Assembly: GCA_030646755.1 (NCBI GenBank) | Contig: JAUSKU010000092.1 | Span: forward strand, 14,270 to 78,269 | From: Deltaproteobacteria bacterium | GTDB taxonomy: Bacteria; Desulfobacterota; JAENJC01 | Direction: 5' to 3' | Length of the DNA: 64,000 bases | Shown: positions 2,813 to 53,052 of the stretch, in pieces | Layout: every line of letters begins with the position of its first letter | Position numbering within the stretch: position 1 is the stretch's first letter | The notes under the pieces: model-generated | The model's database searches: none | What the model saw: only the letters and a program-made list of their open reading frames with translations | What the model was told of the DNA's origin: nothing | Made by a program: the position numbers and the translations under genes

Positions 2813-2814
2813 AC

Positions 2815-5366: not shown

Positions 5367-5396
5367 CGAATTTACCACTGTTCTTTGACAAATGAA

Positions 5397-6165: not shown

Positions 6166-6177
6166 TGACCTCTGCTA

Positions 6178-7089: not shown

Positions 7090-7140
7090 TTGCCTCAGAA
7101 TGACAAACACACGACTGTCATTCTGAGCGAAGCGAAGGGT
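7090..7140. repeat. palindromic element GTCATTCTGAGCGAAGCGAAGGGTCTCA (CACCCTGAG..GAAGGG family)
   Basis: A longer palindromic copy lies at 39075-39135 (gtcaccctgagtgaagcgaagggtctaagattcttcgcttcgctcagaatgac). The motif also appears inside both MITE copies (ccgttcaccctgagcttgtcgaagggt). Confidence 0.65.
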
Positions 7141-7158
7141 CTCATACTTGAATGTTGC

Positions 7159-13685: not shown

Positions 13686-13774
13686 CGGTGGTCAGTTGAA
13701 CTATTGATTTAATTGCAATTGCCGACCACTGATCACTGACCACTGACCACTGACTTTATTGCATAAGGTATCTT
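13686..13774. repeat. inverted pair of heptamer arrays: (AGTGRCC)n ... 27 bp ... (GACCACT)n, site 2
   Basis: The left array is agtgaccggtggccagtggccggtggtcagt and the right is gaccactgatcactgaccactgaccactgac. It lies between the CBS gene and nnr. Confidence 0.9.
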
Positions 13775-18087: not shown

Positions 18088-18126
18088 AGTGGCCGGTTTA
18101 AGGGACCACTGATCACTGACCACTGG
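18088..18126. repeat. heptamer array, site 3 (partial inverted copy then direct copies)
   Basis: The sequence is agtggccggtttaagggaccactgatcactgaccactgg. It lies between ppdK and glyS. Confidence 0.85.
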
Positions 18127-26822: not shown

Positions 26823-29558
26823 TCACTGCTTCGCGCCAAACGAACCTATTAGGGTCATCCCGGGACCGGGAGTGCCACTCTGGACGTGGCTGATCGTGAA
26901 TGTGCCCGCAATTTCATCAGCGTTCGCTCCGTAGAAATAACCATTCATGACCCGGGTACCTGCTCCTGGTGAGGTTATGGTCGTGGTACCTGCTGCGGGT
27001 ATGGAAAGTGTCGTTACTGTGGGGTCGGTGAAACTATTGCCGTTGATGGTACCGTTCACCGTGATGTCACCGAACGTAAGAGGGAGCCCCTCAGATGGCG
27101 CATATAAGGCATATGTACATGAAGAAGCGGCCACAGGCCACACACATGGGGTGATAGTAGACGCACCGGGAAGAGGAGTGATATTAGTAATTAGCCCGGT
27201 AATCGTGCCCGTGCCGCCGGTATAGCTAACGGTCAGGCTTACATCGCCGCTCACGTCATCAGAGCCACCAATGGGCGAGTGCGACAAAACGCCTGTCATC
27301 TTCCCGGTGTAGGTTATCGCAATGGGGTTCGGCATGGTGGTCGTCAGCGTGCCGCCGGCATACGCACTGTAGGTCATGACCGGGACTGGTGACGGCGGCT
27401 GGTTGGGGATGTCGTTCGTTATCGCCCACACACCAAAATCCGCAGAGGCCAACGGGATCGTGTTCCACAAGCTTGTGGCAGTCATAGATAGCGCAGGAGC
27501 ACCCGAAGCCAGTAAAATCGAGCTGGGTAGTGTGGCAATGGCTCCGACGAGGGTAGTCTCGGTGGGAGTGCTCGAAAGAGTGAATATGCTGTCGGGGGCG
27601 ACGCCGAAGGGGCCGGCAGTCACATTGGCAGTACCGCTATTACCACTGATAGTGCTGGTAAAGTCGGTCGACGTTTGTAGCGCGGTGGGAATCATGGCGA
27701 TCGTAGAAACTTGCAGCGTTGGCCCACCAGTCGCTGTGAAAGGGGTCGGGTTGGTCAGATTCTCATTGATGAAGGTGCAGGTGACGTTAGCCCCGGCCTC
27801 CAGATTCACGGTGAAGGTTCGGTTGAGTTGGTCCGTGAAGGTGGTCGTCGAGCCCGGAACCGCGACAAGACATTGAATGGAGGGCACGGTCCAGCCGCTC
27901 ACCGCGTCCTCGGTCACCGTGAAGTCGACACCAGCCGCAAGATTGATGAATGTTTTCGTGTTGGAAAGCGTGGTGTTTGTCGGGTCATCGTCCAGATCGA
28001 AGGCGCTCAGACCCGTTCCCACGGTGGTGAAGTGGAAGTCCTGCGGGCCATCGGGTTGCGCGTCCTTCACGATCGTGAGCGTGCCGGTGCCCGCCGTAGT
28101 CATGACGTTGACGAAGGTGCAGGTGACGTCAGACCCGGCCTTCAGAATCACGGTGAAGGTACCGTTGAGTGGGTCGGTGAAGATTGAGGCGCCCGGCGAG
28201 CCCGGGCTCATGGCCGAGCCCGGGATAGCGGCCGCGTCAGTGCATTGAATGGAGTTCACGGTCCAGCCGCTCACCGCGTCCTCGGTTACAGTGAAGGGGA
28301 CGCCAACCGCCGGTGTGAATGTCTTCGTGTTGGGAAGCGTGGCGTTTGTCGGGTCATCGTCCAGATCGAAGGCGCTCAGGCCCGCTCCCAGGGTGGTGAA
28401 GTGGAAGTCCTGCGGACCATCGGGCTGCGCGTCTTTCACGATCGTGAGCGTGCCGGTGGCGGGTATCGTCAGCTCCAGGCAGGCAGCCGACTCCGTGATG
28501 TTGCTGGTACCCGTTATTATCGCGAGCGCCACGGAGACCACATTGCCATTCACTGCCTGGATGGAGGCGGCGGCATTGCTTTTCACCGCCACGGTGAAGT
28601 TGCCGTTGGCGTTCGTCGTGGTAGATGCAGTACCGGTGTAGTCCGTACCTGTCGAGGTCACTAGAGCCCCCGCCACAGGATTGCCGTTGATGTCCTCAAC
28701 ACAACTGGTGTAGGTGACGGTCTCCAGGATCTGATCCGCGTTCCAGAAGCTGAAGTGGGTCACGCTACCTTCGTAGTACTGATTCGGTGCTGTGCCTTTC
28801 AGCGTCGCCGTGCCTTCTTGCACCCACAGCCCCGTGCTGGTATTGAAGAAGAACAGGGGGATGAAGTTGGGAAGTGTTTGACCCGGAAGCGAGGAGACCG
28901 GGATGCGGATAGTCGATGTCTGACCGCTGGCCAGATTGAGCGGGCTGCCGTTGGCATCGGTGAACGCCACATTGATGGCGCCAAAGCTTTCGATGGACAC
29001 GCTGGAGCCGCTCTGAGTAGTGGCGAGGTAATTGCCGGGCATTGTGCCAAGGTTGTTGGCAGGATCGATGGGCGTCACCTGCGCCGTCACCTGGCCGACT
29101 GGCAAACTGTTACTCGCAGTGCGCAGCCCGCCTGCGGGTAGCGTCACCTGCGCCGTGGAGTTCGGATCGCTGATGGTTTGTGCCACAGTTGGATCGAACG
29201 TCGCCGTGTGCGCCACGGCCAGCATGGGCACGTTGATAGACACCTGCGAACTGGAGGTGGTGTAGGCCGTCGTCGTGCGGTTCTGCGGAACGAAGCCAGT
29301 CTTGGCAAAGGTCACGATTAACGAAGATGCAGGACTCGCGCCGCTAAGTGTGTAAGCACCGCTGCTGTCCGTGATCGTGCTCTTGTTGCCCGCACTCACC
29401 TGCACACCCTGCACGCCGCTATAATTCGCGGCATTGGTGACGAAGCCGGAAATCGTGCCCGACGTCACGGGGGTGTCGCCTCCGCCGCCTCCGCCGCACC
29501 CTGCTACAATAACGGCTGATAGTAATCCCATAAAGCAGAACCTTAATAGCATCTTCAT
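26823..29558 (-). CDS. large surface lipoprotein with Thr/Ser/Gly-rich repeats and duplicated beta-sandwich-like domains
   Basis: The ORF is 911 aa. It has a lipoprotein signal (MKMLLRFCFMGLLSAVIVAGCGGGGGGD). An internal domain of about 120 aa is duplicated (TGTLTIVKDAQPDGPQDFHFTT...FDLDDDPTN...TVTEDAVSGWTV). Ala, Thr, Ser and Gly are strongly enriched. Confidence 0.7.
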   Translation of the reverse strand: MKMLLRFCFMGLLSAVIVAGCGGGGGGDTPVTSGTISGFVTNAANYSGVQGVQVSAGNKSTITDSSGAYTLSGASPASSLIVTFAKTGFVPQNRTTTAYTTSSSQVSINVPMLAVAHTATFDPTVAQTISDPNSTAQVTLPAGGLRTASNSLPVGQVTAQVTPIDPANNLGTMPGNYLATTQSGSSVSIESFGAINVAFTDANGSPLNLASGQTSTIRIPVSSLPGQTLPNFIPLFFFNTSTGLWVQEGTATLKGTAPNQYYEGSVTHFSFWNADQILETVTYTSCVEDINGNPVAGALVTSTGTDYTGTASTTTNANGNFTVAVKSNAAASIQAVNGNVVSVALAIITGTSNITESAACLELTIPATGTLTIVKDAQPDGPQDFHFTTLGAGLSAFDLDDDPTNATLPNTKTFTPAVGVPFTVTEDAVSGWTVNSIQCTDAAAIPGSAMSPGSPGASIFTDPLNGTFTVILKAGSDVTCTFVNVMTTAGTGTLTIVKDAQPDGPQDFHFTTVGTGLSAFDLDDDPTNTTLSNTKTFINLAAGVDFTVTEDAVSGWTVPSIQCLVAVPGSTTTFTDQLNRTFTVNLEAGANVTCTFINENLTNPTPFTATGGPTLQVSTIAMIPTALQTSTDFTSTISGNSGTANVTAGPFGVAPDSIFTLSSTPTETTLVGAIATLPSSILLASGAPALSMTATSLWNTIPLASADFGVWAITNDIPNQPPSPVPVMTYSAYAGGTLTTTMPNPIAITYTGKMTGVLSHSPIGGSDDVSGDVSLTVSYTGGTGTITGLITNITPLPGASTITPCVWPVAASSCTYALYAPSEGLPLTFGDITVNGTINGNSFTDPTVTTLSIPAAGTTTITSPGAGTRVMNGYFYGANADEIAGTFTISHVQSGTPGPGMTLIGSFGAKQ
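27765..28465. repeat. intragenic tandem duplication with a period of about 365 bp and about 2 copies, inside the lipoprotein gene
   Basis: Positions 27880-28130 are nearly identical to 28245-28465, for example ggtccagccgctcaccgcgtcctcgg and gtggtgaagtggaagtcctgcgg. A third partial copy sits at 27770-27860. Confidence 0.8.
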
Positions 29559-29703
29559 TTCTGAACCCTCCTTTTTATGGCTTCATGGCAATTTAGAAAA
29601 ACCGCTGGATACCGAAAATAAAAATGCCCTTCCCGTAAATTTACAGGGAAAGGCATTTTATACCCACCCGGGTATAAATAAAGATCATTAACGACGGTGC
29701 TAT

Positions 29704-29764
29704 GAGTTGAGTTGAGTTGAGTTGAGTTGAGTTGAGTTGAGTTGAGTTGAGTTGAGTTGAGTTG
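29704..29764. repeat. (GAGTT)12 pentanucleotide microsatellite
   Basis: The tract is a perfect tandem gagtt repeat. It lies 146-206 bp upstream of the lipoprotein start codon at 29558 and 70 bp downstream of the coiled-coil gene stop. Confidence 0.95.
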
Positions 29765-29785
29765 CAGTATGTATGCCATCTTTAT

Positions 29786-29830
29786 TCCCCTCACCCTAAC
29801 CCTCTCCCACAAGGGGCGAGGGGACTTTCC
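29786..29830. repeat. GC-rich palindromic element, copy 2 (TCACCCTAACCCTCTCCC-ACAA-GGGGCGAGGGG)
   Basis: It shares the core CACCCT(A/G)ACCCTC(T)CCC...GGGGCGAGGG with copies 4 and 5. Confidence 0.75.
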
Positions 29831-33870: not shown

Positions 33871-34539
33871 TTATGGTCTTATTTCCCATACAAGCTCTCC
33901 TCTGCCTGGAGGGCCGGTCATCACAAACTTTACAGATTTAGTCTCATTTGTTATCAGCTGCCTCTGATCAAGCAAATTCAAGGGGAATTTCACAGAATAC
34001 CCAACGCTCCAATCATCGAAATACGGAAAAAACCGAGTGATGTTCGGCCCTTTCCCCTTGAGTTTTTTTATCTCCAGGGGAGATACCCTTTCACCCATTT
34101 CATTTACAAGGTAAAGGGCCCATATAGGCTCTTTTCTTTCCAAATCACTCCATTCCTGAATCGGGGTATGAATTGAAATAAAGAACTCATGATATCCCCT
34201 TGGGGCCTCTATCTCATCCTCAGCAAGTTTTTTCACCTTCTCTGTGTCAAGCATGTAAACTGTTGAATATTCTCTGACATAAGACTCCCTGAACTCTTCG
34301 GTCTTAAAGGTCGCGTTAATAAGCAATTTCGTTTCAAAATTACTATAAACTTTACCTTCCCTTGTCCATTTTTTAAGGACAGACCCGTATCCATTCTCAG
34401 TAGGCTTTGTCACCTTTTGGGTAGCGCAGGAGGTTAAAAGGAGGCAACAAATAACGTAAGACGTGAGACGTGAGACGTGAAACGTCTGATACCGAGCACT
34501 GACCACTGACCACTGACCACCGACCACTGTTTTCATCAT
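33871..34539 (-). CDS. hypothetical lipoprotein (start uncertain)
   Basis: The lipobox is LLLTSCATQ. The annotated N-terminus is translated from the heptamer-repeat arrays GACCACT and GACGTGA, so the true start is probably downstream, giving a protein of about 190-200 aa. Confidence 0.45.
   Translation of the reverse strand: MMKTVVGGQWSVVSARYQTFHVSRLTSYVICCLLLTSCATQKVTKPTENGYGSVLKKWTREGKVYSNFETKLLINATFKTEEFRESYVREYSTVYMLDTEKVKKLAEDEIEAPRGYHEFFISIHTPIQEWSDLERKEPIWALYLVNEMGERVSPLEIKKLKGKGPNITRFFPYFDDWSVGYSVKFPLNLLDQRQLITNETKSVKFVMTGPPGRGELVWEIRP
34459..34530. repeat. (GACGTGA)3 followed by (GACCACT)4, site 4
   Basis: The sequence is gacgtgagacgtgagacgtgaaacgtc...gcactgaccactgaccactgaccaccgaccactg. 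It lies between pyrE and the lipoprotein gene. Confidence 0.9.
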
Positions 34540-38996: not shown

Positions 38997-39163
38997 ATCT
39001 TTCTCCTGAAATCGTAAAATTTACCGCAGAGGCGCAGCCAAAAGTAGACGCTTCTAAGCGAGACGCAGAGTTTTATTGTCACCCTGAGTGAAGCGAAGGG
39101 TCTAAGATTCTTCGCTTCGCTCAGAATGACATGTTTAATGAGCTTTCTCTGTGCCCTCTGTGG

Positions 39164-41339: not shown

Positions 41340-42632
41340 TTATTTAAAAACCCTATTGAATATGTAGTCTACGTTCTTAAGATGATAGTTTAAATCGAAC
41401 GAATTTTCAATCTCTTTTTTGTCAAGGTACCTTGTCACATCTTGGTCTGAAAGGAGGAGTTCCTTGAAATCCTTCCCCTCAGCCCATACCCTCATGGCGT
41501 TCCTCTGAACCAGGTTGTAGGCCTCCTCCCTGCTTGCCCCCTTTACCGTCAAGGCAAGCAATACCCTCTGTGAATGGATAAGGCCGTGGAGTTGGTTAAT
41601 GTTCTTCATCATGTTTTCAGGGTAGACGATGAGCCTGTCCATCAGGTCCGCAAATCGGTTGAGCATATAGTTCATCATGATGGTGCTGTCGGGGCCTATG
41701 ACCCTCTCTACGGATGAGTGGCTTATATCCCTCTCATGCCACAGCGCCACATTCTCCATGGCAGCAAAGGAGTTGGACCTAACCAGCCTTGCAAGACCTG
41801 TCAGATTCTCGGCTGATATGGGGTTCCTCTTGTGAGGCATGGCTGAGGACCCCTTCTGTCCGGGAGAGAAATATTCTTCAGCCTCCAACACCTCTGTCCT
41901 CTGAAGGTGCCTCAGTTCAACGGAGAAATTCTCTATGGACGATGCTATCAAGGCAAGGGTTGTAAAGAACTCGGCGTGCCTGTCCCTCTGGACCACTTGG
42001 GTTGATACAGGCTCAGGCGTCAGCCCCAGGTGCTTACAAACATACTCTTCCACGAACGGAGGGATATTGGCGAATGTCCCGACAGCCCCGGATATGGCCC
42101 CGCAGGATATCACATCCTTCGCCCTCTCCATCCTCGCAAGGTTTCTTTTCATCTCTTCATACATCAAGGCCATCTTCAGGCCGAAGGTCACAGGCTCGGC
42201 ATGAATGCCGTGGGAACGCCCCATAGCAGGGGTCATCTTGTGCTCCATCGCCCTCCTCTTCAAGACCTCCATGCACCTCTTTATGTCGGATATGATTATC
42301 TCCGACGCCTCTTTTAGCAGGACTGCAAATGATGTGTCAATAAGGTCCGAGGATGTCATCCCCTTATGCAGGAACCGCGATTCAGGCCCTATGCTCTCGT
42401 TGACGGATGTGAGAAACGCTATCACGTCATGCTTCACCACCTTCTCAATCTCATCAATCTTCTTGGGATCGAAGCAGGCCTTCTTCTTAATGACCTCAAT
42501 CGCCTCCCTCGGCACCTCCCCAAGCTCCGCCCAAGCCTCAGTGGCCAGTATCTCCACCTTTAACCATGTCTGGTACCTCTTCTCCACTGTCCATATCGCC
42601 GCCATCTCCGGCCTTGTATAACGCTCGATCAT
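41340..42632 (-). CDS. purB: adenylosuccinate lyase
   Basis: The ORF is 430 aa. It begins [14 protein letters not shown] and carries the fumarate-lyase signature [11 protein letters not shown]. Confidence 0.9.
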
Positions 42633-42662
42633 TTACGATTCTCCTTTTGTTCTAATATTATG

Positions 42663-42791
42663 AGGTTCTTGCAAAAGTCTAATTTGTGGTTCGACAGGCT
42701 CACCACGAACGGGAAAAATCAATAAATTCAACTGAACCACCGTTCACCCTGAGCTTGTCGAAGGGTATTCGAAGAGCTTTGCAAGAGCCTC
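42663..42791. mobile_element. MITE-like element, copy 1 (about 129 bp, 18-bp terminal inverted repeats)
   Basis: The left terminal repeat is GAGGTTCTTGCAAAAGTC and the right is GAGCTTTGCAAGAGCCTC. The core TGTGGTTCGACAGGCTCACCACGAACGGGAAAAA...CCACCGTTCACCCTGAGCTTGTCGAAGGGTA is about 90% identical to copy 2. Confidence 0.6.
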
Positions 42792-43009: not shown

Positions 43010-43113
43010 TATATTCCTCCTCTATCTGCTGCCAGATACCGTAGGATGGGTGAAACCCATCACACAAAACCTACATTATAACGATGGGTTGCGTTTCACT
43101 TCACCCATCCTAC

Positions 43114-43560
43114 TTACTGATGAACCAGGACGTTACGACTCCAGCCATGTTCGATGGCCTTCCGGGCATACCATTCCCGTTCTTTTCTGGATTTGAGCTT
43201 GGTAATAATGGTGATATTTTGCCCCCACGGTATTTGTCCAACGAGCTGTTGGACAATTTGCTCTGTATCCCATGCTTCGGCAAAGCTTCGCATATACATG
43301 AGATTCGCCCTCGAAAACCCTTTCATATCCGGGAACTCCCGTCGAAGGTCTGTTGCCAGGCGCTCGACAACCTTTGCTCCCCAGCCTTCCTGTTCCTGTC
43401 GGGTCAGGATGTCACGGCCAATCTGCCAGTAGAGCAAAACCAGTTCGCTGTTGACCGCCAAAGCGGCCCGCACTTGGGCCTGGCGGATTCGCGCCTTCAG
43501 GTCGCGCAGGAACTCTTCATATCCCTTGAAAGTGGTAATGTTCATCCCCTTCCCCTTCAC
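43114..43560 (-). pseudogene. DUF1016/YhcG-like N-terminal fragment (the PD-(D/E)xK nuclease C-terminal domain is missing)
   Basis: The ORF is 148 aa and ends at ...AIEHGWSRNVLVHQ, where YhcG-like proteins continue into the nuclease domain. The truncation coincides with a long imperfect inverted repeat at 43041-43113. Confidence 0.5.
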
Positions 43561-43996
43561 AACCGCCTTTCCGCCGCCTGCCGCAAGAGACGCAGGCCTT
43601 TAAATACTGACAAATATGCAACGACTGGTTATTCCGCAGAGCCTATTGTTCCCTTTCCCATATCTGGCAATTCAGCAATTCAGTGTCATGTCCTCAAAAT
43701 TCCAGGTTTCCTTGGTCTCTGGTCAACGGGGCAGACGACAAGCAACTGATGCACAGCACAGTAATAAGCAAAGCTTTGATCTTAGATACTGTTTTGTTCA
43801 TCATGTTTTTGTTCTCCTGTATGTTCATATGCACCTCCGAATTGAGTTTAATGCCTTTGGCCACCTGCAAGGTTGCACTTGCAGCTACTATTGGCTGTGC
43901 TATGGCATCAGGATGCCTATGTATCGTATGCCCTATCTCCCCCGAAGGCCAGAGATCAAGGAATATTAATTATGCTTTATTAAATTTGTCTCTTAT

Positions 43997-44126
43997 GAAC
44001 CTCTTGCAAAAGTCTTTTTGTGGTTCGACAGGCTCACCACGAACGGGAAAAAGTCAATGATTCCAACCCGACCACCGTTCACCCTGAGCTTGCCGAAGGG
44101 TAATTTCGGACTTTTGCAAGAGGCTC
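43997..44126. mobile_element. MITE-like element, copy 2 (about 130 bp)
   Basis: The left terminal repeat is GAACCTCTTGCAAAAGTC and the right is GACTTTTGCAAGAGGCTC. The core is the same as copy 1. Confidence 0.6.
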
Positions 44127-44235
44127 CCATCTCAGACAATTCAGTATCAAGTCACCGGGTTACATTACCTAATTCGTCGTTTCCTTCTCTAAGGGACTTT
44201 GGTAAATACTAAAATACCGTTTTTGATAGGTCAAA

Positions 44236-44312
44236 CCCATCCCCACCCTAACCCTCCCCTTGAAAGGGAGGGAGGTTTACTTCTCCCCCTATATTGAGAG
44301 GGGGATGGGTTG
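44236..44312. repeat. GC-rich palindromic element, copy 4
   Basis: It contains ccccaccctaaccctccccttgaaagggagggagg and tctccccctatattgagagggggatggg. Confidence 0.75.
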
Positions 44313-44342
44313 TTAAGCGGTATGTTTGAATGTTCTAAGTCC

Positions 44343-45353
44343 CTAACTTACAATTGTTTTTATCCAGCAATTTTCGCTGCATGAATCAAAAAAATCAATG
44401 TCTGCTTTAATCCCAGCACGATTTAATTGCTGCTCCATCCGATTGATGTCTTTGTAAATCTCCACTTGTGGCCGATCTGTATAAACAGATACAGCAATAT
44501 CTGTTAGACGTGCTTTCGCTAATTGTTTCAGTATATGAAAATCCATCTCTTCCATGGACCAGCCATAAATCACCAATGTTGGCCCCACTGCCGGCAAAAC
44601 AGAATCATATAATGTGCTTAAATAGTGACTTCTCTTAATAGCCTTTAATTTCTGTTCCGATAATCCTTCACTTACAAATAATGGAATGGTAGTCCCAGAT
44701 TCCCATTGCTTCAATATCTTGTTCAAGAGGTTAATCCCGTCTGTAACATTTATCTTGGTTTCATTCCCGTAAATATCAGTAGATAAAACAAGATTTCCAT
44801 GAGGATAGAAAAGCAGTGAAGCCCCTTTTGCATTATAGGGTTTTGAAAAGCCTGACCAGTTATCGGGAAACGATCCACTTACAAAGCAGTCCTTAAACCA
44901 GTTGCCAAGTTCATTATTCCCTTCCAAGATAGACCAATAAATTATCAAGTCATAATTTAAACTTACTATCACTGAAAACCTTTTTAGAAAATTATATATA
45001 GACTTAATAAATGGTCTTACTGCTTCAACTGTAGTGTGATTGTGTCTAACAGTGCCTATTAAGGCGTTACGCAATTCTTGATACGTATGATAAGAAACCG
45101 ATTCTTTTATCTGCAAAGCTGTATTAATGTGATATGTATGCCAAAGTAGACTTAAAACATATTCAAAATCCTCTGTTTCCAGATATTTGAAAATCATATC
45201 TATGTTTGTGCTGATTAACTTTATATCTTTTGAAGTCTTCAGAAGCGACTTATACGAAAAACAGCCATCTATAGCAATGCTGGCTCCATTGCCTAGTAAA
45301 ATACTATGTTGGTATTTCTCTGAGATATCATTCCAATCATGAATATTCGTCAT
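44343..45353 (-). CDS. DUF4917 family protein
   Basis: The ORF is 336 aa. The N-terminal motif SILLGNGASIAIDGCFSY matches the LLGNGFSIA signature of DUF4917. The gene is markedly AT-rich (about 38% GC against about 50% in the flanks), which suggests horizontal acquisition. Confidence 0.55.
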   Translation of the reverse strand: MTNIHDWNDISEKYQHSILLGNGASIAIDGCFSYKSLLKTSKDIKLISTNIDMIFKYLETEDFEYVLSLLWHTYHINTALQIKESVSYHTYQELRNALIGTVRHNHTTVEAVRPFIKSIYNFLKRFSVIVSLNYDLIIYWSILEGNNELGNWFKDCFVSGSFPDNWSGFSKPYNAKGASLLFYPHGNLVLSTDIYGNETKINVTDGINLLNKILKQWESGTTIPLFVSEGLSEQKLKAIKRSHYLSTLYDSVLPAVGPTLVIYGWSMEEMDFHILKQLAKARLTDIAVSVYTDRPQVEIYKDINRMEQQLNRAGIKADIDFFDSCSENCWIKTIVS

Positions 45354-45558
45354 AGCTTTTTCTTGTATATCCCTTTAGGGAATTCTCCGCTTCTTCCGAG
45401 GACTACGAACTATATGTAACGTCTTAAATAATAGCGCATAGCGTGCGCAATACCCCATTTGGAAATTCGGGGGACCTTTTTCCGCCCCCCTCTTTACCGA
45501 ACTGATTTTTCATAACGCCCTTTAATTCCTTTATGCCCTTGGGTACTCTTACCTTAAG

Positions 45559-45618
45559 AGGGGGAACGTGCCAGTTGGCCCCTCACCCTGACCCTCTCCC
45601 CCCTTTTGGGGCGAGGGA
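45559..45618. repeat. GC-rich palindromic element, copy 5
   Basis: The sequence is cccctcaccctgaccctctcccccttttggggcgaggg. Confidence 0.75.
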
Positions 45619-45654
45619 ATAATGGATTGCGGAAATGACAATTTCAAATCTCCC

Positions 45655-45852
45655 TCACTCCAGCCCCTCAAACCTCGCATCAGTAATCGCCCTTTTTTTG
45701 AAACCTATAGTCTTGTTGATGAAAAGGTTTGCCTCTTCAAGCCACTGGAGCCGCTGTCTGACCGACATATCCTTGAACTCCTCCAGCTTCTCCTTGGTGA
45801 AGGTATACACGATGTCTATATGTTCCTTGCTATCATCGCCCACTTTTTTCAA
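45655..45852 (-). CDS. small protein of 65 aa, downstream partner of the nucleotidyltransferase
   Basis: It overlaps the 3' end of the upstream nucleotidyltransferase gene by 20 bp. No family was recognised. Confidence 0.35.
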   Translation of the reverse strand: MKKVGDDSKEHIDIVYTFTKEKLEEFKDMSVRQRLQWLEEANLFINKTIGFKKRAITDARFEGLE

Positions 45853-46324
45853 TCTCCTTCAGCGCCGCAATGTCGGCAAGATCCTGGGGTCTGCCGGAAA
45901 TCTCCTTAAGTCTAATGAGATTTTTTACAGAGACAACAGGTATGGGAACGTTGCCGGACATTATTTCGACTGCATCAGACATTATCAGGCCGTAGTCCAC
46001 TGGTTCTTCAACAAACACGTCAACCAGATTGATCGGCATCTGAGGATGGAAAAAACTGAAGACCTTCATATTCTTTTCGCTGATCCAGGTTGCCCTATTC
46101 TTAGCACTGATAAAGTCTTCTGCTTTTATAGGCACCTTTGGCCTGTATCCAAGCTCGTTCATGACATTAACGAACTTGCTGAGATTCTCCTCTTCCAGAT
46201 GGACCATAAGGTCAAGGTCTGCCGTCAGCCGGACGACTCCATGAAGGACGAGGGCGACTCCCCCCACAACAACGTAATCAACATTACTGCTATTCAGTTT
46301 TTCAAATAATTCCTCGTAAAACAT
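45833..46324 (-). CDS. minimal nucleotidyltransferase (Pol-beta superfamily, MNT/AbiEii-like)
   Basis: The ORF is 163 aa. NVDYVVVGGVALVLHGVVRLTADLDLMV fits the hG[GS]x9-13DhD nucleotidyltransferase motif. Confidence 0.55.
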   Translation of the reverse strand: MFYEELFEKLNSSNVDYVVVGGVALVLHGVVRLTADLDLMVHLEEENLSKFVNVMNELGYRPKVPIKAEDFISAKNRATWISEKNMKVFSFFHPQMPINLVDVFVEEPVDYGLIMSDAVEIMSGNVPIPVVSVKNLIRLKEISGRPQDLADIAALKEIEKSGR

Positions 46325-46386
46325 CCTTACCCCTCTCTACTTCTTTACTCCCACTCAAACACCTCCAAATCCCCTCATCCCTTCCC

Positions 46387-46710
46387 TTATCTCAACACCC
46401 TTTTCTGCAAAAGTTCTTGCAGGTCGCGCCTTCCGTCAAGAACACAATGGACAAAGACCTCTGATTTGCGAATCTCGTAGATTATTCTGAATGGCTTGTA
46501 ATGGATCTCCTTGAAATCAAAAACGCCTATCCGTTCCAACTCCGGCGGAATATGGCCGCGCAAAGGAAAGGTTTCGAGCCTTTGAACAGCTTCTTCAATA
46601 TGGTCAAGCAGCGTGTCGGCCTGTTCCACTGAATCGTTCATTGCAATATATTGATAGATATCGAGGAGGTCTTTTTCTGCATCTTCAATCAGATGGACAG
46701 TGAATCTCAT
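46387..46710 (-). CDS. parE: type II toxin, RelE/ParE family
   Basis: The ORF is 107 aa. Its size and pattern (…FDFKEIHYKPFRIIYEIRKSEVFVHCVLDGRRD) fit ParE, and it overlaps the antitoxin gene by 4 bp. Confidence 0.7.
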   Translation of the reverse strand: MRFTVHLIEDAEKDLLDIYQYIAMNDSVEQADTLLDHIEEAVQRLETFPLRGHIPPELERIGVFDFKEIHYKPFRIIYEIRKSEVFVHCVLDGRRDLQELLQKRVLR

Positions 46711-46991
46711 TTCTCACGAAGTCCCGCGGCTCTTTTCCTCACATCCCTGAAAGCCTCTTTGAAAGGCTTGATTTTCCCATCTTCAAGATTTTTCCTGCTC
46801 ATTGCCAGGATTTTCAACAATGCAAGGGACTCCTGCATCTTTTCATATTCGTTTATGTCCTGCAAGATCACTTTCGCCTCACCGTTTTGCGTGATTACCA
46901 TAGTCTTGTGGCCTTCGACAATATCTCTAATGACCTCCGACGCATGCGCCTTAAAATAACTTATTGGTTTAATATCTTCGCTAAGTTTCAT
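46707..46991 (-). CDS. type II antitoxin, Phd/YefM family
   Basis: The ORF is 94 aa. The N-terminus ISYFKAHASEVIRDIVEGHKTMVITQNGEAKVILQDINEYE is typical of YefM. Confidence 0.75.
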   Translation of the reverse strand: MKLSEDIKPISYFKAHASEVIRDIVEGHKTMVITQNGEAKVILQDINEYEKMQESLALLKILAMSRKNLEDGKIKPFKEAFRDVRKRAAGLREK

Positions 46992-47243
46992 CTTCCCCTC
47001 CCGCAGATTGACTAAAATATAGTCTATATTTTAGTCGTTCGCAATGCAACTTCTTTTCGCCCGTCCTTATGATATGAATAAAAAGGAATAAAAAGGGTAG
47101 ATTTATTTCCCTTTCCCCGCTTCCAGCCGCGCCTCGCTTACTCTTTGATAACCTTTAAATCTGTGTCAGTGGCTTCGTTTATCTTTGGCATAACCGCCCT
47201 TAGATTCCCGCTTGAACACTTCGGGAATGACAAAATAAGAGGC

Positions 47244-47469
47244 TTATCTGTATACTTCTCTGCGATGGGCAACACGGTAAACCTTGACAATCCTTTGTGC
47301 ATCATCAAGCTCGTAGAGTATCTTGTAATCACCCACTCTGATGCGCCATTTCGAGCCGCCGCCGCTGAGCTTTTTAGAGTTCCGTGGCGTATAGGCCAAG
47401 AATCGCATCCTCAAGCCTCGTTAAAAGCCGGTCAGAAAAACAGTCAAGGTCTTTCTGGGCTTTCGGCAT
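47244..47469 (-). pseudogene. RelE/ParE-family toxin gene with a frameshift
   Basis: Manual translation on the minus strand gives MPKAQKDLDCFSDRLLTRLEDAILGLYATEL* and then, in another frame, PRNSKKLSGGGSKWRIRVGDYKILYELDDAQRIVKVYRVAHRREVYR*. The second stretch is the RelE C-terminal signature. Confidence 0.55.
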
Positions 47470-47488
47470 TATCTGCACATCGTATTGA

Positions 47489-47710
47489 TTCAAGCTGTAT
47501 CCCCGGTTTTACGCCGTTTTGTGAAATAATCTTTGGCAGAGACAGGTTTACCCTTTACCTTCTTTGCCTCATCAATCAATGCAGCATCCATAAGGTCTTC
47601 CCTGATCCGGCGGTTTTTTAATATTTTTTCAAAAAAGCCTCTCGCACGCTACTGTCAAGCACCTTGAATGCCGTAAAGAAAACCTCTGCCGTGGCCTGAT
47701 TTGCCTTCAT
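47489..47710 (-). pseudogene. cognate antitoxin gene interrupted by a stop codon
   Basis: Manual translation gives MKANQATAEVFFTAFKVLDSSVREAFLKKY* and then ...MDAALIDEAKKVKGKPVSAKDYFTKRRKTGDTA*. It lies immediately upstream of the decayed RelE gene. Confidence 0.4.
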
Positions 47711-47800
47711 AAATTAACCTTCTTACTCTATTTCCCTCTGATACACCGGGCATTTCCTGCGCAACTGATGTTGATGGTGCGTGGGACGCACCCTACAAAA

Positions 47801-48202
47801 CTATGCCTTAAGTTTATCAAGAACAAACCCTTTAACTTTCACCGCTATCTCATACGCCTGCTTTGACTCTTCTATCGTGGGTTCATACCACTCATCAGGA
47901 TACCGAATCTCAACTGCATAATCTGTCAGGACATCGGCCTCTGATAAGTCCTCTTTAAACGACTTATCCACCTTAGAACAAAGGTTTAGAAGCATCATTA
48001 TGCTGTGCGTCTTTGAAAACTCAATCTGGTGTTTAACTAAAAAAGCCTTTAAATACTTCTCTACCGCCTGCTGGCAATGAAAACTCACAGTTTCTGTAAC
48101 GACGGTTTCAGCCTCCAGGCCCTGTTTAGCAGTCAGCAAATCCCTTTCTGCTATATGAATCCATTGATGAACCAAATCCTGTATGGTCTTCCCTTTATCC
48201 AT
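47801..48202 (-). CDS. HEPN domain protein (toxin of a HEPN/MNT pair)
   Basis: The ORF is 133 aa with the all-alpha HEPN pattern (…FHCQQAVEKYLKAFL…EIRYPD). It overlaps the upstream MNT gene by 8 bp. Confidence 0.65.
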   Translation of the reverse strand: MDKGKTIQDLVHQWIHIAERDLLTAKQGLEAETVVTETVSFHCQQAVEKYLKAFLVKHQIEFSKTHSIMMLLNLCSKVDKSFKEDLSEADVLTDYAVEIRYPDEWYEPTIEESKQAYEIAVKVKGFVLDKLKA

Positions 48203-48506
48203 ATACTATCCTGCCATATTTGTTGGCCGTATAAACTATTGTTCCAACAACATCTTTGAGGGTCTCAAACTCTTTTCTTGTCTTTACGATAACATCAACC
48301 GGGAATGTAAAGTCCCTCAGATAACTTCTTGCCACGCGATTCCTCTTGATTATAGGCAATTCATCATCTTTGATCACCAGTAAATCAACGTCACTATCCT
48401 TTGTCGGCTCCCCGTAGGCGTAAGAACCGAACAAGATGATCTTTTCCGGCTTATAACCGTTGACAATAGCCGTAATTGCCTGATTTATCTGTTCCTGAGT
48501 TATCAT
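48195..48506 (-). CDS. minimal nucleotidyltransferase (MNT antitoxin)
   Basis: The ORF is 103 aa. ILFGSYAYGEPTKDSDVDLLV is the GSx10DxD nucleotidyltransferase motif. Confidence 0.75.
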   Translation of the reverse strand: MITQEQINQAITAIVNGYKPEKIILFGSYAYGEPTKDSDVDLLVIKDDELPIIKRNRVARSYLRDFTFPVDVIVKTRKEFETLKDVVGTIVYTANKYGRIVYG

Positions 48507-48688
48507 CTCCCCTCATCACCACTCAATCCCCTGCCTCCTCAACCAATCCTGCTCCCCTTTATGCCACAATCCCGGCAGTCTCGCAGGGTGCGTGGGACGC
48601 ACCCTGCGAACTCCTTATGTTTTATTATCAGCGCGGCATGACTTGAAGCTTCATAGATTCAAAATAACTATCAAAAGAAAAGGCAGTC

Positions 48689-48967
48689 TCAATCTTTAAT
48701 CGCTCCATTACTGCAAAGCTGGTGCAGTTTTGCATAGAGGTATTTGTCATGCTCTCTTGCAACAGGGGAACCGTCTCCGGCCCCGATCCCAATTATCTTC
48801 ATTATCGGGTCACTTTTCGTGATTGCGGTCTGCCTGGAAAACTTTTCGGTCACAAGCTCTCTGACAATACTGGAAAGACTCTTCTTCGTTTTTCTGGATG
48901 TCTCAAGCAACACTTGATACTGCCAATCTTCAAGCGACACCTGTGTTCTATGTTTTGCACGTTCCAT
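48689..48967 (-). CDS. ribbon-helix-helix (CopG/Arc-like) DNA-binding protein
   Basis: It begins MERAKHRTQVSLEDWQYQVLLETSRKTKKSLSSIVRELV, which has an RHH pattern. An AGGAGG ribosome-binding site lies 8 nt before the ATG at 48967. Confidence 0.5.
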   Translation of the reverse strand: MERAKHRTQVSLEDWQYQVLLETSRKTKKSLSSIVRELVTEKFSRQTAITKSDPIMKIIGIGAGDGSPVAREHDKYLYAKLHQLCSNGAIKD

Positions 48968-49022
48968 AAGGTCACCTCCTGAGTTACACCTTACATCATT
49001 CAAAATCTGATGTCAATTTACC

Positions 49023-49454
49023 TTATTCCCACTCAAACGCCTCATAAATTCCCTCTTCCCTCCTCCTCTGGGCAGTCTTGCTCTTATAGCTCCCTTTCTT
49101 CACCTTAACACCTTTCCGACTAAGTATCTTTTCGATATAGTCAAGATGCGGGCATGGCGGGTAATGGGCGCTGTCTGTGACCATGCAGGATGAGAGGTGT
49201 ATCACTATCTCGTCCTTCTCTATGTTCGCCTTCTTCTTTGCCCTCTTTATAAGGTTTTCAGTGACCCTCCCGATCCTTCTGCCGGGGCATCCGCCGCAGT
49301 TGAAAGGGACGACCATTATCTTATCTTCGTTTGAATAGCCGGTAAATGCATCAATCCTATCATGAAAAGAGTTGACGCAGGCGAACCCGCTGCATCGCTC
49401 CTTTGCGAAGTCGCACTGGATGATGCCTATGAGCTTGATGTTTTTATTTTCCAT
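49023..49454 (-). CDS. CGGC domain protein
   Basis: The ORF is 143 aa. The Cys-rich motifs CGGCPGR, CSGFAC and CPHLD are present. Confidence 0.55.
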   Translation of the reverse strand: MENKNIKLIGIIQCDFAKERCSGFACVNSFHDRIDAFTGYSNEDKIMVVPFNCGGCPGRRIGRVTENLIKRAKKKANIEKDEIVIHLSSCMVTDSAHYPPCPHLDYIEKILSRKGVKVKKGSYKSKTAQRRREEGIYEAFEWE

Positions 49455-49554
49455 TGTTTATTACTCCCTTGCCGGGGACAGTCCCGATTCTACCACCCCG
49501 CACTTCGTGCTCCCCTCCTTATTAAGGAGGGGAATTAAAGGGGTGGTTAAATCC

Positions 49555-52500
49555 TTACTCAACCACCATTGCCTTGTACCCAAACAGTTTCTCCACCCCT
49601 TCTTCAAGGGCAGGAGTTGGCGAAACACCGTCGTGCAGGGCGATTACAGTCTCACCTGTATTTGGAATAGAAATATGCAGGAATGACGGACAGTTACCAT
49701 TATACCCTTCAAGTAATTTCTTAAGTTTTACCAGGTGATCTTTTGTCAAGCCAAGGGCATTTATTTTGAAGTGTACAGCCTTAACTGTCTTCTCCTTTGC
49801 CTGTGTAAGGGACATTATCTCAGAGGCAACGATCTTTGCTCCCTTCTTCGGAGTCTTGTTCCCGTTCCCTTCATCCTCACCGTTTTCATCCTTCCCATCC
49901 TCTCCAAGGTCAAGGTTTCCCTTCACAAGTATCGGCTCGTCCCCAAAGAAGAGGTGGGAGGACTTTTTGAATATCTCCGGCAGTACAATGACCTCCACGA
50001 ACCCGTCCAGGTCTTCCAAGGTAATAAACGCCATCCTATCGCCCTTTTTGGTGTTTATCTCCTTTGATGCCGCAACTATCCCTGCCACCCTGACCTCCGA
50101 CCTGTCAGCCATCTCCGAAAGGGTCACTGTTGAGGCATTGGCAAGTTTCTTTATGTCATCACTGAATCTTGCCAGGGGATGACCGGTTATAAAGAAGCCG
50201 AGGGCCTCCTTCTCGTTGGCAAGGAGGATATTTTCAGGCCATTCAGGGATATCAGGAAGGTTAAAGTCTGTCGTGCTCTTCAATGCCGCACCGCCGAACA
50301 GCCCCATCTGCCCGGCATTTGTGTCCTTCCGCAACGACTGCCCGACCTCCATGGCCCTGTCGAGCCCCTCCATCATCTGGGCCCTGGCGGCTCCAGTGGA
50401 ATCAAAGGCCCCGCATTTAATAAGACCCTCCATGACCTTCCTGTTGACCTTCCTCAGGTCAACCCTCTCGCAGAAATCAAGGAGGGCTGCAAAACCGCCT
50501 CCCTTCTCCCTCTCTTCTATCACAATGTCTACGGCAGCAGCGCCAACTCCCTTCACTGCCGCAAGACCGAACCTGATCTTGCCGTCTATGACGGAGAAGT
50601 CCCTCTGGCTATCATTTACATCCGGAGGAAGTACAGTAATATTATGATCTCGGCATTCGCCAATGTACTTTATTATCTTGTCCGTGTTGCTGACCTCGCA
50701 GGTCAGGAGGGCAGCCGTGAACTCCACAGGATAATGGGCCTTCAGATACGCAGTGTTATAGGCGATCAGGGCATATGCGGCGCTGTGGGACTTGTTGAAC
50801 CCGTATTCGGCAAACTTGGCCATAAGGTCAAAGATCTTCTCTGCCTTTTTGGGATTGACCTTCTTGTGCCTTGCACCTTCCAGGAACCGCTCCTTCTGCT
50901 TGGCCATCTCATCGGCCTTCTTCTTACCCATGGCGCGCCTGAGAATATCGGCTTCACCAAGGGAGTACCCGGCCACAGCCTGGCTTATCTGCATCACCTG
51001 TTCCTGGTAGACCATAACGCCGTAAGTATCCTTGAGGATCGGTTCAAGCTCAGGGATCTCATACTTGATCTCAACCCTCCCATGCTTACGGTCTATAAAC
51101 TCAGGGATCATATTCATCGGCCCGGGCCTGTATAAGGCGATAAGGGCTATGATATCCTCAAAGGTAGAGGGTTTGAGTCTTGCAAGGAGGTCCTTCATTC
51201 CAGAGCTCTCAAGCTGGAAGACCCCTGTTGTATCCCCTGAAGAGAGGAGCCTGTATGTGGCCTCATCGTTTAGGGGAAGCTTGGTCATGTCAATCGTCTC
51301 ACCCCTTACAGCCTTTATAAGCTTTAGTGCATCCTCTATAAGCGTCAGGGTCTGAAGCCCAAGGAAATCGAATTTTATGAGCCCCAGCTTCTCTATGTAT
51401 TTCATGTCGTACTGGGTGGTCACCTCATCATCGGCAAGATAGAGAGGGGTATATTCTACAAGAGGCCTGTTGGCTATGACAACTCCTGCTGCGTGCTTGG
51501 ATGCATGCCTTGTAAGACCTTCAAGGGCCTGGGCGATATCCAAGAGATCCTTTACCTGTGGAGATGACTTGTAGAGTTCATTGAGCCTTGGCTCCTGCTT
51601 CAGGGCGTCTTTTATAGTGATGCCGAGGGTGTTGGGAACGAGCTTTGCGATCCTGTCCACCTCGCCGTAAGGTACGTCCATCCCCCGACCGACATCCCGG
51701 ATTGCCGCCTTTGCCTTCATGGTGCCGAAGGTTATTATCTGGGAGACGTTCTCCCTTCCATACTTATCCCTGACGTATTTGATGACTTCATCCCTCCCGG
51801 CGATGCAGAAGTCCACGTCTATATCGGGCATTGATACCCTTTCAGGGTTCAGGAACCTCTCGAAGAGGAGGTTGTAAGGCAACGGGTCCAGGTCCGTGAT
51901 CCTCATGGCATAAGCCACAAGGCTTCCGGCAGCGGAGCCCCTTCCCGGTCCGACAGGGATACCCCTCTCCTTTGCATGGTTGATGAAGTCCGCTACTATA
52001 AGGAGATACCCCGGAAACCTCATCTTCTTTATCATCTCTATCTCGAATTCAAGCCTGTTCCGGTAAACCTCCCTTTGGTCATCAGAGAGGTTCATGACGG
52101 CAAACCTGCCCTCCAGCCCTTTCCTGGCCTCCTCCTCAAAATACAGGTCCATATCTGTATGCCCTTCCGGGAGGTGATAATGAGGAAGGTGGTACTTCCC
52201 GAACTCCAGCTTCAGGTTGCACCTTTCCGCAATCTCTATGGTATTCTTTATCGCGTCAGGGCAGTATGAAAATGCCTCTATCATCTCTTCGGGGGACTTC
52301 ACGTAGAACTGGTCCGTTGAAAATCTCATCCTTTTGGGATCGTTTATCGTCGCCCCGGTCTGGATGCAGAGAAGCACCTCGTGGGCCTTGGCATCTGCCT
52401 TTTTAAGGTAATGGCAGTCGTTGGTGGCAACCAGAGGAATGTCCAACTCCTTTGAAAGCTCCAGCAGAGCCTTATTGGCTATGGTCTGCTCCTTTATGCC

Positions 52501-53052
52501 GTTCTCCTGTATCTCCAGGAAGAACCTCCTGTCAGGGAATATGGACTTGTACTCCTCTGCGACCTGGTACGCCTTTTCCTTATTCCCCCTGGTCAGGTGA
52601 TAAGGTATCTCTCCCTTCAGGCAGGCCGACAGGGCTATTAGCCCTTCGCTGTGCTGCCTTAGAAGCTCCTTGTCGATCCTGGGTTTCCTGTAAAAGCCTT
52701 CGATATACCCAACGGACACCAGTTTCATCAGGTTCTTATACCCGGTCTCGTTCTTAACAAGAAGGACAATATGATAAGCAGTGGCCTCCTCGGACTCACC
52801 CTTTATCCCAGTCTTCTCGAACCTGCTCCCTGGCGCAACATAGACCTCGCAGCCTATGATCGGCTTTATCCCGTGTTTAACGGCAGATTCATAGAACTCC
52901 ATGGCCCCGAACATGTTCCCGTGGTCTGTAATGGCAATGGCAGGCATCTTGAACTCTCTGGCCTTCTCCATCAGGTCATTGATGCGGTTTGCCCCGTCAA
53001 GGAGTGAGTATTGGGTATGTAAGTGAAGGTGTACGAAATCGGAGTGATGCAT
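49555..53052 (-). CDS. dnaE: DNA polymerase III alpha subunit
   Basis: The ORF is 1165 aa. The N-terminus MHHSDFVHLHLHTQYSLLDGA is a PHP domain, and the polymerase core and OB fold follow. Confidence 0.95.
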   Translation of the reverse strand: MHHSDFVHLHLHTQYSLLDGANRINDLMEKAREFKMPAIAITDHGNMFGAMEFYESAVKHGIKPIIGCEVYVAPGSRFEKTGIKGESEEATAYHIVLLVKNETGYKNLMKLVSVGYIEGFYRKPRIDKELLRQHSEGLIALSACLKGEIPYHLTRGNKEKAYQVAEEYKSIFPDRRFFLEIQENGIKEQTIANKALLELSKELDIPLVATNDCHYLKKADAKAHEVLLCIQTGATINDPKRMRFSTDQFYVKSPEEMIEAFSYCPDAIKNTIEIAERCNLKLEFGKYHLPHYHLPEGHTDMDLYFEEEARKGLEGRFAVMNLSDDQREVYRNRLEFEIEMIKKMRFPGYLLIVADFINHAKERGIPVGPGRGSAAGSLVAYAMRITDLDPLPYNLLFERFLNPERVSMPDIDVDFCIAGRDEVIKYVRDKYGRENVSQIITFGTMKAKAAIRDVGRGMDVPYGEVDRIAKLVPNTLGITIKDALKQEPRLNELYKSSPQVKDLLDIAQALEGLTRHASKHAAGVVIANRPLVEYTPLYLADDEVTTQYDMKYIEKLGLIKFDFLGLQTLTLIEDALKLIKAVRGETIDMTKLPLNDEATYRLLSSGDTTGVFQLESSGMKDLLARLKPSTFEDIIALIALYRPGPMNMIPEFIDRKHGRVEIKYEIPELEPILKDTYGVMVYQEQVMQISQAVAGYSLGEADILRRAMGKKKADEMAKQKERFLEGARHKKVNPKKAEKIFDLMAKFAEYGFNKSHSAAYALIAYNTAYLKAHYPVEFTAALLTCEVSNTDKIIKYIGECRDHNITVLPPDVNDSQRDFSVIDGKIRFGLAAVKGVGAAAVDIVIEEREKGGGFAALLDFCERVDLRKVNRKVMEGLIKCGAFDSTGAARAQMMEGLDRAMEVGQSLRKDTNAGQMGLFGGAALKSTTDFNLPDIPEWPENILLANEKEALGFFITGHPLARFSDDIKKLANASTVTLSEMADRSEVRVAGIVAASKEINTKKGDRMAFITLEDLDGFVEVIVLPEIFKKSSHLFFGDEPILVKGNLDLGEDGKDENGEDEGNGNKTPKKGAKIVASEIMSLTQAKEKTVKAVHFKINALGLTKDHLVKLKKLLEGYNGNCPSFLHISIPNTGETVIALHDGVSPTPALEEGVEKLFGYKAMVVE

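Follow-up and report, generated by a model that had tools for sequence, protein, structure and literature searches.

What does a lone, AT-rich gene of the DUF4917 family do in a deltaproteobacterial genome in which it stands among toxin–antitoxin (TA) modules, and how did it come to be there? The gene lies at positions 44343–45353, on the minus strand, of a 64,000-nucleotide stretch (referred to throughout as the window) of contig JAUSKU010000092.1 in the Deltaproteobacteria bacterium assembly GCA_030646755.1, and an original prediction had taken it for a horizontally acquired and possibly self-sufficient defence or abortive-infection gene. The reading favoured here is that it encodes a one-protein abortive-infection module that depletes NAD+; to this statement as a whole, with the identity of the gene, its acquisition, and its proposed mechanism taken together, a probability of roughly 0.55 is assigned. 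The identity, fold, and acquisition of the gene can together be stated with high confidence; NADase chemistry, triggering by phages, and an abortive outcome are what we infer for its action.

The open reading frame (ORF) was found exactly as first described, with an ATG start and a 336-residue product that begins HSILLGNGASIAIDGCFSYKSLL / MTNIHDWNDISEKYQHSILLGNGASIAIDGCFSYKSLL. Its assignment to DUF4917, originally made from the opening residues, is borne out by the profile search, in which Pfam PF16263 matches over its entire length (profile positions 1–311 of 311) with E = 2.6e-87 and 293.6 bits, against a cut-off of 28 bits. The PADLOC model PDLC04961, which describes the single-gene system PDC-S21, matches residues 1–333 with E = 2.3e-102, and NCBIfam holds no model for the protein. 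The exact protein is already present at NCBI as MDO8446780.1, a “DUF4917 family protein” from a Deltaproteobacteria metagenome-assembled genome (MAG) on a 78.5-kb contig. The ORF, Pfam, PADLOC, the AlphaFold2 model, and the NCBI entry together describe an intact DUF4917/PDC-S21 coding sequence with one SIR2-like domain. The family is large: a word-indexed search gives 1875 matches at E ≤ 1e-5, an exhaustive one yields representatives of 3150 clusters at 50% identity, and the members are spread over many bacterial phyla and the archaea. Among the best 150 cluster representatives, nearly all are single-domain proteins of ~335 residues, the lengths ranging from about 320 to 450. All 39 columns that are invariant in a 40-sequence alignment of the family are retained in the window protein, and the gene is a typical member of a known and already annotated family, not a new kind of system.

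A SIR2-like fold had been among the possibilities raised at the outset, and structure prediction points to it. The AlphaFold2 model of the protein, built from the 40-sequence alignment, has a pLDDT of 92.3 and a pTM of 0.91, and a Foldseek search of the PDB with this model returns 35 matches at E ≤ 0.001. The best 32 of these are all chains of entries of the SIR2–HerA (Nezha) system, the top one with E = 1.2e-9, a probability of 1.0, and a TM of about 0.55, at an aligned identity of 12–16% to the SIR2 subunit. DSR2 and then the canonical sirtuins follow in the ranking, far weaker, and deacetylase structures appear at E ≥ 2.8e-4 with a TM of about 0.3. A helical insertion specific to the DUF4917 family occupies about residues 37–123 of the model.

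The conserved positions of the family fall where a SIR2 active site would be expected to have them. Gly21, Asn22, Gly23, Ser25, Tyr134, Asp135, Pro184, His185, Gly186, Gly264, Asp271, and His273 are invariant in the 40-sequence alignment, and Ala24 and Asn133 are conserved in at least 90% of the sequences. The predicted glycine-rich NAD-phosphate-binding loop after β1 is Gly21-Asn22-Gly23-Ala24-Ser25 (codons at 45279–45293, minus strand, as for the following two), which aligns with GAGLS of ThsA; the predicted catalytic asparagine is Asn133 in an SLNYD motif (44955–44957), aligned with TTN112YD of ThsA; and the predicted catalytic histidine is His185 in a YPHGN motif (44799–44801), aligned with KMH152GD of ThsA and KFHGD of KomC. 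The ThsA SIR2 domain used as the reference is 100% identical to PDB 6lhx, and PDB 8bto is the N112A catalytic mutant of ThsA; further PDB-verified SIR2 NADase domains (8wc0, 7uxt, and KomC, 8zsf) entered the comparison with a four-sequence SIR2 profile. With default settings, hhalign links the DUF4917 profile by a single short motif to ThsA alone (E = 0.13) and to the four-sequence profile (E = 0.031), and in its greedy local mode it gives one alignment of 192 columns, in a single order (E = 0.028), that pairs GNGAS with GAGLS, SLN133YD with TTN112YD, PH185G with MH152G, and YGWS..D271 with VGFS..D. This alignment is supporting rather than decisive, and together with the fold match and the invariant positions it suggests a coherent residue mapping. 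Only two cysteines are conserved in the family, Cys156 (90%) and Cys329 (82%), and the Cys4 zinc ribbon of the deacetylase sirtuins is therefore absent, as it is in the defence NADases. As modelled, the protein is a single-domain Rossmann-type SIR2 with a complete predicted NAD+-binding and catalytic set (Gly21-Asn-Gly-x-Ser25, Asn133, Asp135, and His185) and without a zinc ribbon.

The missing ribbon bears on the first alternative, which comes from Campylobacter jejuni. The original prediction gave DUF4917 no established function, which was incomplete: SliP (Cjj81176_0779), the sole characterised DUF4917 protein, has been reported as a secreted NAD+-dependent deacetylase. As far as the published description allows them to be compared, SliP and the window protein share the Pfam family and the G–N–G NAD loop (Gly24 and Gly26 in SliP), and NAD+ is consumed in the SliP assays; they differ in that SliP is the secreted deacetylase of a pathogen, whereas the host of the window is an environmental deltaproteobacterial MAG. 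The window protein could thus resemble SliP in using NAD+ to deacetylate protein lysines, and would then be a sirtuin with a regulatory or effector role whose action is to modify proteins and not to deplete NAD+, as would fit the reported deacetylation of peptides bearing acetyl-lysine by a family member with the same loop, in which zinc is stimulating, and the canonical sirtuins lower among the fold matches. However, Cys156 and Cys329 cannot make up a Cys4 zinc ribbon, the module whose absence also sets the protein apart from the canonical sirtuins (CobB, Sir2Tm, and SIRT); defence NADases have the closest folds, at E = 1e-9, while deacetylases reach 3e-4 at best; the effects reported for SliP are small, about 2- to 4-fold; and the family is spread over free-living bacteria and archaea without an animal host. 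With the genomic evidence given below, these points make a deacetylase unlikely.

The neighbourhoods of homologous genes supply the second line of evidence for a role in defence. At 76 homologue genome loci, the neighbours within four genes on either side were clustered, giving 532 neighbours in 464 clusters, and no constant or universal partner gene of DUF4917 was found in the 76 loci. Clusters of HsdR, HsdM, and HsdS, the identity of which was confirmed by Pfam, occur at 10–12 loci each and at 13 of the 76 in union, and at 11 of the 76 the DUF4917 gene stands between hsdM/S and hsdR. McrB together with McrC lies within four genes at five loci, and PglZ at three, again confirmed by Pfam, so that 18 of the 76 homologues in union lie in or beside type I restriction–modification (R-M), McrBC, or BREX-like systems. 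The neighbourhood of defence genes that the original prediction had mentioned is found in these 18 loci, while the near-versus-far PADLOC enrichment control made alongside is not valid. The window gene resembles another part of the family: among the 68 loci with both neighbours present, 30 have no tightly linked neighbour on the same strand. A T5orf172/MUG113 gene was considered as an obligatory partner and rejected, with no match in 80 loci. The embedded position also concerns SliP itself, as sliP forms an operon with the R subunit of a type I restriction system in C. jejuni 81-176 (Cjj81176_0779/0780), a placement whose possible role in defence is not discussed in the SliP paper. That sliP stands beside a type I hsdR, in the typical position of an embedded defence gene taken by 11 of the 76 loci, argues against reading the family as deacetylases.

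Two individual loci deserve description in their own right. In Anaerospora hongkongensis (L163/L164:5854–16884), the homologue forms part of a densely packed defence island with a KAP NTPase, an IS200 Y1 transposase, Fic, DUF5986, a helix-turn-helix/M78 regulator, and a complete type II CBASS consisting of a CD-NTase, an E1-like ThiF, a JAB protein, and a SAVED effector. At another locus (L046:10001–12061), a homologue ORF of 686 residues lies inside a type I R-M locus; its residues 1–325 are DUF4917, and the remaining ~360 residues match neither DUF4917 nor HsdR. This ORF may be a rare fusion or an artefact of assembly or frameshift.

Genes embedded in this manner have been collected before. 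In the “guilt-by-embedding” study of Payne et al. (2024), 145 phage-defence candidate (PDC) models were built on genes found nested within type I R-M, BREX, and DISARM systems, and these were presented by the authors as candidates only; PDCs have been excluded by other authors as unvalidated, and a cold-seep study that tested eight candidates did not include PDC-S21. The window gene agrees with PDC-S21 in its near full-length match to the model, in being a single-gene system, and in having homologues embedded in type I R-M or BREX-like loci (the 11 between hsdM/S and hsdR, and the three beside PglZ); it differs in that the window copy is not in an R-M, BREX, or DISARM system and instead occupies a TA-rich hotspot between housekeeping genes. 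PrrC offers a parallel in position, since many DUF4917 homologues stand between hsdS and hsdR as prrC does. PrrC is an ABC-ATPase anticodon nuclease, whereas the DUF4917 protein has a SIR2 fold, and the window copy has no adjacent R-M system; guarding an R-M system therefore cannot be its mode here.

Comparison with the SIR2 proteins of known defence systems likewise yields resemblance in the enzyme domain and differences in what accompanies it. The SIR2 subunit of SIR2–HerA, the best structural match, is a Rossmann SIR2 without a zinc ribbon and serves in that system as the NADase effector in defence, but the HerA ATPase partner is absent from the island in the window, and no recurrent ATPase neighbour is present in the 76 loci except McrB (five loci). 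The SIR2 domains of ThsA, KomC, and DSR2 share the GxGxS loop, the xxN-Y-D motif, and the H-G motif in the same order, with Asn133 corresponding to Asn112 and His185 to His152 in the alignment at E = 0.028. These proteins carry or need sensor modules (SLOG and ThsB for ThsA, KomA/B for KomC, and a large C-terminal domain for DSR2), whereas the window protein consists of the SIR2 domain only. It is not a Thoeris ThsA, having 336 residues in a single domain and neither a SLOG nor a TIR gene among the annotated ORFs of the island, nor is it a DSR2, which has ~1000 residues with a C-terminal sensor of phage proteins.

In the mechanism proposed, the DUF4917 protein would be held inactive in uninfected cells. 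Upon infection, NAD+ would be hydrolysed or otherwise consumed at the Asn/His site, as it is in ThsA, DSR1/2, KomC, and the SIR2 subunit of SIR2–HerA, and the loss of NAD+ would halt phage replication at the cost of the cell. The helical insertion of about residues 37–123 and oligomerisation are the candidates for the trigger or sensor. More tentatively, and as a possibility rather than an expectation, DUF4917 might be a self-contained, one-protein SIR2 NADase immune module that detects infection on its own, perhaps by way of the helical insertion or of a change in its oligomeric state.

Several observations weigh against an NAD+-depleting defence protein. The fold match to SIR2–HerA is of moderate TM (about 0.55), with a root-mean-square deviation of 7–8 Å; the protein matches neither SIR2 nor SIR2_2 of Pfam at E ≤ 1; and a sequence search of the PDB with both the protein and the 40-sequence profile gives no relevant match. 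There is therefore no solved DUF4917 structure to lean on, and the relationship to SIR2 is visible at the level of fold and motif only, where the hhalign link is itself marginal (E = 0.028, in the greedy setting only). SliP has been reported as a flagellum-secreted, NAD+/Zn-stimulated histone/lysine deacetylase and not as an NADase. The near-versus-distal PADLOC control is not clean, as distal genes also match defence models and redundant HsdS models dominate. No sensor domain or partner that could account for a trigger is evident in the protein or the locus, and the sigma-70-like matches around the gene, four found against 5.0 expected, are not above chance. Finally, in the literature searched, PDC-S21 is named in no paper, and phage protection by any member of DUF4917/PDC-S21 was not found.

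The acquisition of the gene can be reconstructed in some detail. Its GC content is 35.1%, compared with a window mean of 48.2% and 46–47% in the 5-kb flanks, which ranks lowest when 1011-bp windows are slid along the 64 kb (a fraction of 0.0008 have this value or less) and is ~3.4 standard deviations under the mean; the AT-richness noticed originally was thus right in direction, although the figures given then (~38% against ~50%) were slightly off. Among 69 homologue loci, the gene is lower in GC than its flanks in 94%, with a mean gap of 5.9 points, and low GC is a trait of the DUF4917 family. Close relatives of the host, found through the dnaE cluster at 90% identity, are represented by L165 and L168, in which the backbone genes are 96–97% (purB), 93% (dnaE), and 92% (CGGC) identical to those of the window. 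Nucleotide homology to these relatives stops at 49027 and resumes at 43037 (L165) or 42928 (L168), and between the dnaE/CGGC and purB blocks the window carries 6.0 kb of cargo, L165 carries 3.1 kb (L165:10353–13452; DUF3368, a DDE transposase, and a zeta-toxin-like AAA_33 protein), and L168 carries 0.8 kb (L168:14045–14866; an AbiEii protein 51% identical to the DUF6036 protein of the window). The AbiEii/DUF6036 nucleotidyltransferase is the sole cargo common to the window and L168, and tblastn finds no DUF4917 gene in L165 or L168. With the same backbone, different cargo, and no DUF4917 gene in the relatives, the site is therefore a hypervariable hotspot and the DUF4917 gene its strain-specific cargo. 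A scan of metagenome contigs based on purB was uninformative, as it returned only relatives of at most 68% identity without the island genes or linkage to dnaE.

The closest homologue of the protein, P0001, with 91% amino acid identity, is encoded on a contig from another sample (L162), in a context that differs from that of the window, DUF4917 there being preceded by a T5orf172/MUG113 gene and followed by a PIN gene. Nucleotide identity between the two copies is 93.9% and is confined to 44343–45400, which takes in the ORF with its stop codon and the 47 nt ahead of its start, and the flanks are unrelated. The 47-nt leader (45354–45400, minus strand) matches the 3′ end of the gene that lies upstream in L162; its 17 codons share 59% identity with the C-terminal end of that gene's product, the CTATGA stop/start overlap is the same, and the window therefore retains a remnant of a former T5orf172/MUG113-like neighbour. 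Recent acquisition of the DUF4917 gene by horizontal transfer, as proposed at the outset, is well supported by the relatives that have the same backbone without it and by the 94%-identical copy in an unrelated context. A gene-sized cassette, consisting of the ORF and the 47 nt, was brought in by horizontal transfer and landed in the dnaE/CGGC–purB hotspot, which gathers TA and Abi-like modules in this deltaproteobacterial lineage. Homologues are found on 37 plasmids. A phage origin was considered and rejected, as tblastn of DUF4917 against 50,697 phage records gave no match and a structural search of BFVD was likewise empty.

The retained remnant can also be read as a sign of decay, the window copy being an orphan that, deprived of its T5orf172/MUG113 partner and of its native promoter, has ceased to be expressed or to function. 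Of the upstream gene just 47 nt are left, no convincing promoter was found near the gene, and DUF1016_N and ParE fragments nearby show that the segment is eroding. The ORF, however, is full length and keeps every invariant residue, and its differences from the 94%-identical copy, synonymous at 22 codons and non-synonymous at 29, leave the frame intact, with neither a frameshift nor a stop codon. Nor is T5orf172 a recurrent partner (0 of 80 loci), and 30 homologues of 68 are equally stand-alone. A decaying orphan is therefore very improbable.

The company that the gene keeps in the hotspot is that of TA and Abi-like modules. The minus-strand run that holds it is flanked by housekeeping blocks, with purL, purQ, MscS, and purB on one side (up to 42632) and the CGGC gene and dnaE on the other (49023–53052). 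In the backbone, purB, encoding adenylosuccinate lyase, occupies 41340–42632 on the minus strand, and the CGGC-domain gene occupies 49023–49454, also on the minus strand, beside dnaE (49555–53052); both are assigned by Pfam. The strain-specific segment, delimited by the ends of homology to L165 and L168, spans 43038–49026 and contains DUF4917 and all of the TA-like modules, which lie, like DUF4917, on the minus strand. A DUF1016 gene truncated to its N-terminal domain (43114–43560; DUF1016_N, E = 1.4e-45) ends inside the domain after 148 residues. A DUF6036/AbiEii-like nucleotidyltransferase (45833–46324), assigned by Pfam and located at the same position as the AbiEii gene of L168, overlaps a 65-residue ORF (45655–45852), the two spanning 45655–46324. 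A ParE toxin/Phd-YefM antitoxin pair (46387–46991; Pfam E = 2.2e-18 and 6e-18) is followed by a ParE toxin fragment that retains only the C-terminal 36 profile positions (47244–47414; Pfam) and by a HEPN/minimal nucleotidyltransferase (MNT) pair (47801–48506; HEPN, E = 2.2e-27; NTP_transf_2, E = 4.3e-12). Also between the backbone blocks are a 62-residue ORF before the DUF1016 fragment and a ribbon–helix–helix protein after HEPN/MNT. The DUF1016 and ParE fragments are signs of ongoing erosion in the cargo segment, and the three-way comparison of the dnaE–purB region shows cleanly how cargo is replaced while its place in the chromosome stays the same.

Such surroundings suit a further alternative, in which the gene is a selfish or addiction-type toxic gene, or encodes another NAD+-using enzyme such as an ADP-ribosyltransferase, and is kept by horizontal transfer without a part in phage defence. 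Some SIR2-fold enzymes ADP-ribosylate rather than hydrolyse NAD+; the gene stands among ParE/Phd, HEPN/MNT, and AbiEii-like modules in a hypervariable site; and its low GC, patchy distribution, and occurrence on plasmids are all in keeping with a gene of this kind. However, no cognate antitoxin-like partner recurs in the 76 loci, and it is from embedding of the kind seen here, between hsdS and hsdR or beside McrBC and BREX, that validated defence genes have come, so that this alternative is improbable. The status of the gene as strain-variable cargo among TA modules also counts against the protein lysine deacetylase discussed above, and a defensive NADase remains the preferred reading.

The repeats around the gene, which the original prediction had described as bracketing it, are real, and two palindromes do flank the gene. 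A miniature inverted-repeat transposable element (MITE)-like sequence of ~130 bp with 18-nt terminal inverted repeats (94% complementary) lies at 43997–44126 (copy 2) and folds far better than shuffled sequence (z = −6.2), and a first copy, identified by direct repeats matching copy 2, lies at 42662–42791, between the 62-residue ORF and purB. Copy 1 is an insertion polymorphism, as L165 (13673–13675) and L168 (14983–14994) lack it precisely at the corresponding position, and elsewhere in L168 (17435–17543) there is a copy of 91% identity. Being short and non-coding, bounded by terminal inverted repeats, and present in several copies with a site that is occupied or empty according to the relative, the 130-bp element is a MITE, and it is genuinely mobile; its empty-site sequence resembles the element's own end, which makes the boundaries ambiguous for a target-site duplication. 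The MITE pair was considered as a composite vehicle of DUF4917 and rejected, as both window copies flank the DUF1016 fragment instead.

The GC-rich palindromes form a family with five copies in the window (29786, 30289, 44238, 45578, and 62323), compared with none expected by chance, and two of these flank the gene. Nested palindromes at 44229–44312, just 3′ of the stop codon, fold at −47 kcal/mol (a modest z of −2.3) with a terminator-like stem on the plus strand, and a palindrome of the same family at 45559–45618, ~200 nt upstream of the start codon in what the original prediction called the promoter region, is not distinctive in its folding (z = −1.5). A function as terminator or promoter was rejected for the palindromes, the consensus-level matches occurring at chance frequency only, and Rfam identifies no known RNA family anywhere in the window. 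The flanking repeats are not the vehicle or the boundaries of the transferred unit, because one limit of the shared unit is the stop codon and the other lies 47 nt upstream of the start, and the strain-specific segment spans 43038–49026.

Further repeats are found elsewhere in the window. A (TGAGT)n pentanucleotide microsatellite of ~16 units (29693–29772) lies beside the GC-palindrome copy at 29786, and short (GACCACT)n-like heptamer runs recur at gene junctions (13161–13197, 13716–13752, 18096–18132, and 34479–34529). The 32-nt sequence TGTCATTCTGAGCGAAGCGAAGGGTCTCATAC is present at 7116–7147 and 39100–39131, in inverted orientation at distant intergenic sites, and is probably a further dispersed repeat family. 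Within a 911-residue ORF (26823–29558) encoding a surface-type protein (SpaA_4/CarboxypepD_reg), positions 27766–28471 form a tandem duplication with a period of ~370 bp and 85–90% identity. A CRISPR array at 5396–6183, with 11 copies of the 36-nt repeat ATTTCCGTGGCTGAAAAGCCACGGCCCCATTGAAGC at a period of 72–75, lies directly downstream of three plus-strand ORFs (611–5366). One of these (2710–3783) encodes Cas_GSU0053 (E = 6.6e-44), which together with the array suggests a type I-G/I-U-like CRISPR–Cas locus, and the other two, of 733 and 528 residues, have no Pfam match.

The locus itself is ordinary accessory cargo in a defence/TA hotspot, and the value of the finding lies in the family. DUF4917 is a compact SIR2 protein of ~335 residues with a predicted intact Asn/His site and with neither a sensor domain nor a partner, which is transferred as a lone gene and frequently lies inside R-M, McrBC, or BREX operons. 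If it is a self-contained immune module that needs no partner, its distribution would be wide, across bacteria and archaea (>3000 clusters at 50% identity), and the role of SliP as a “secreted sirtuin virulence factor” would be secondary or in need of reinterpretation. The most useful lead to come from this locus is that the defence-island biology of DUF4917 conflicts with the function published for SliP. If a minimal SIR2 protein is indeed a complete immune system, the question for the biology of the family becomes how a bare NADase is silenced in the healthy cell, and how it senses a phage.

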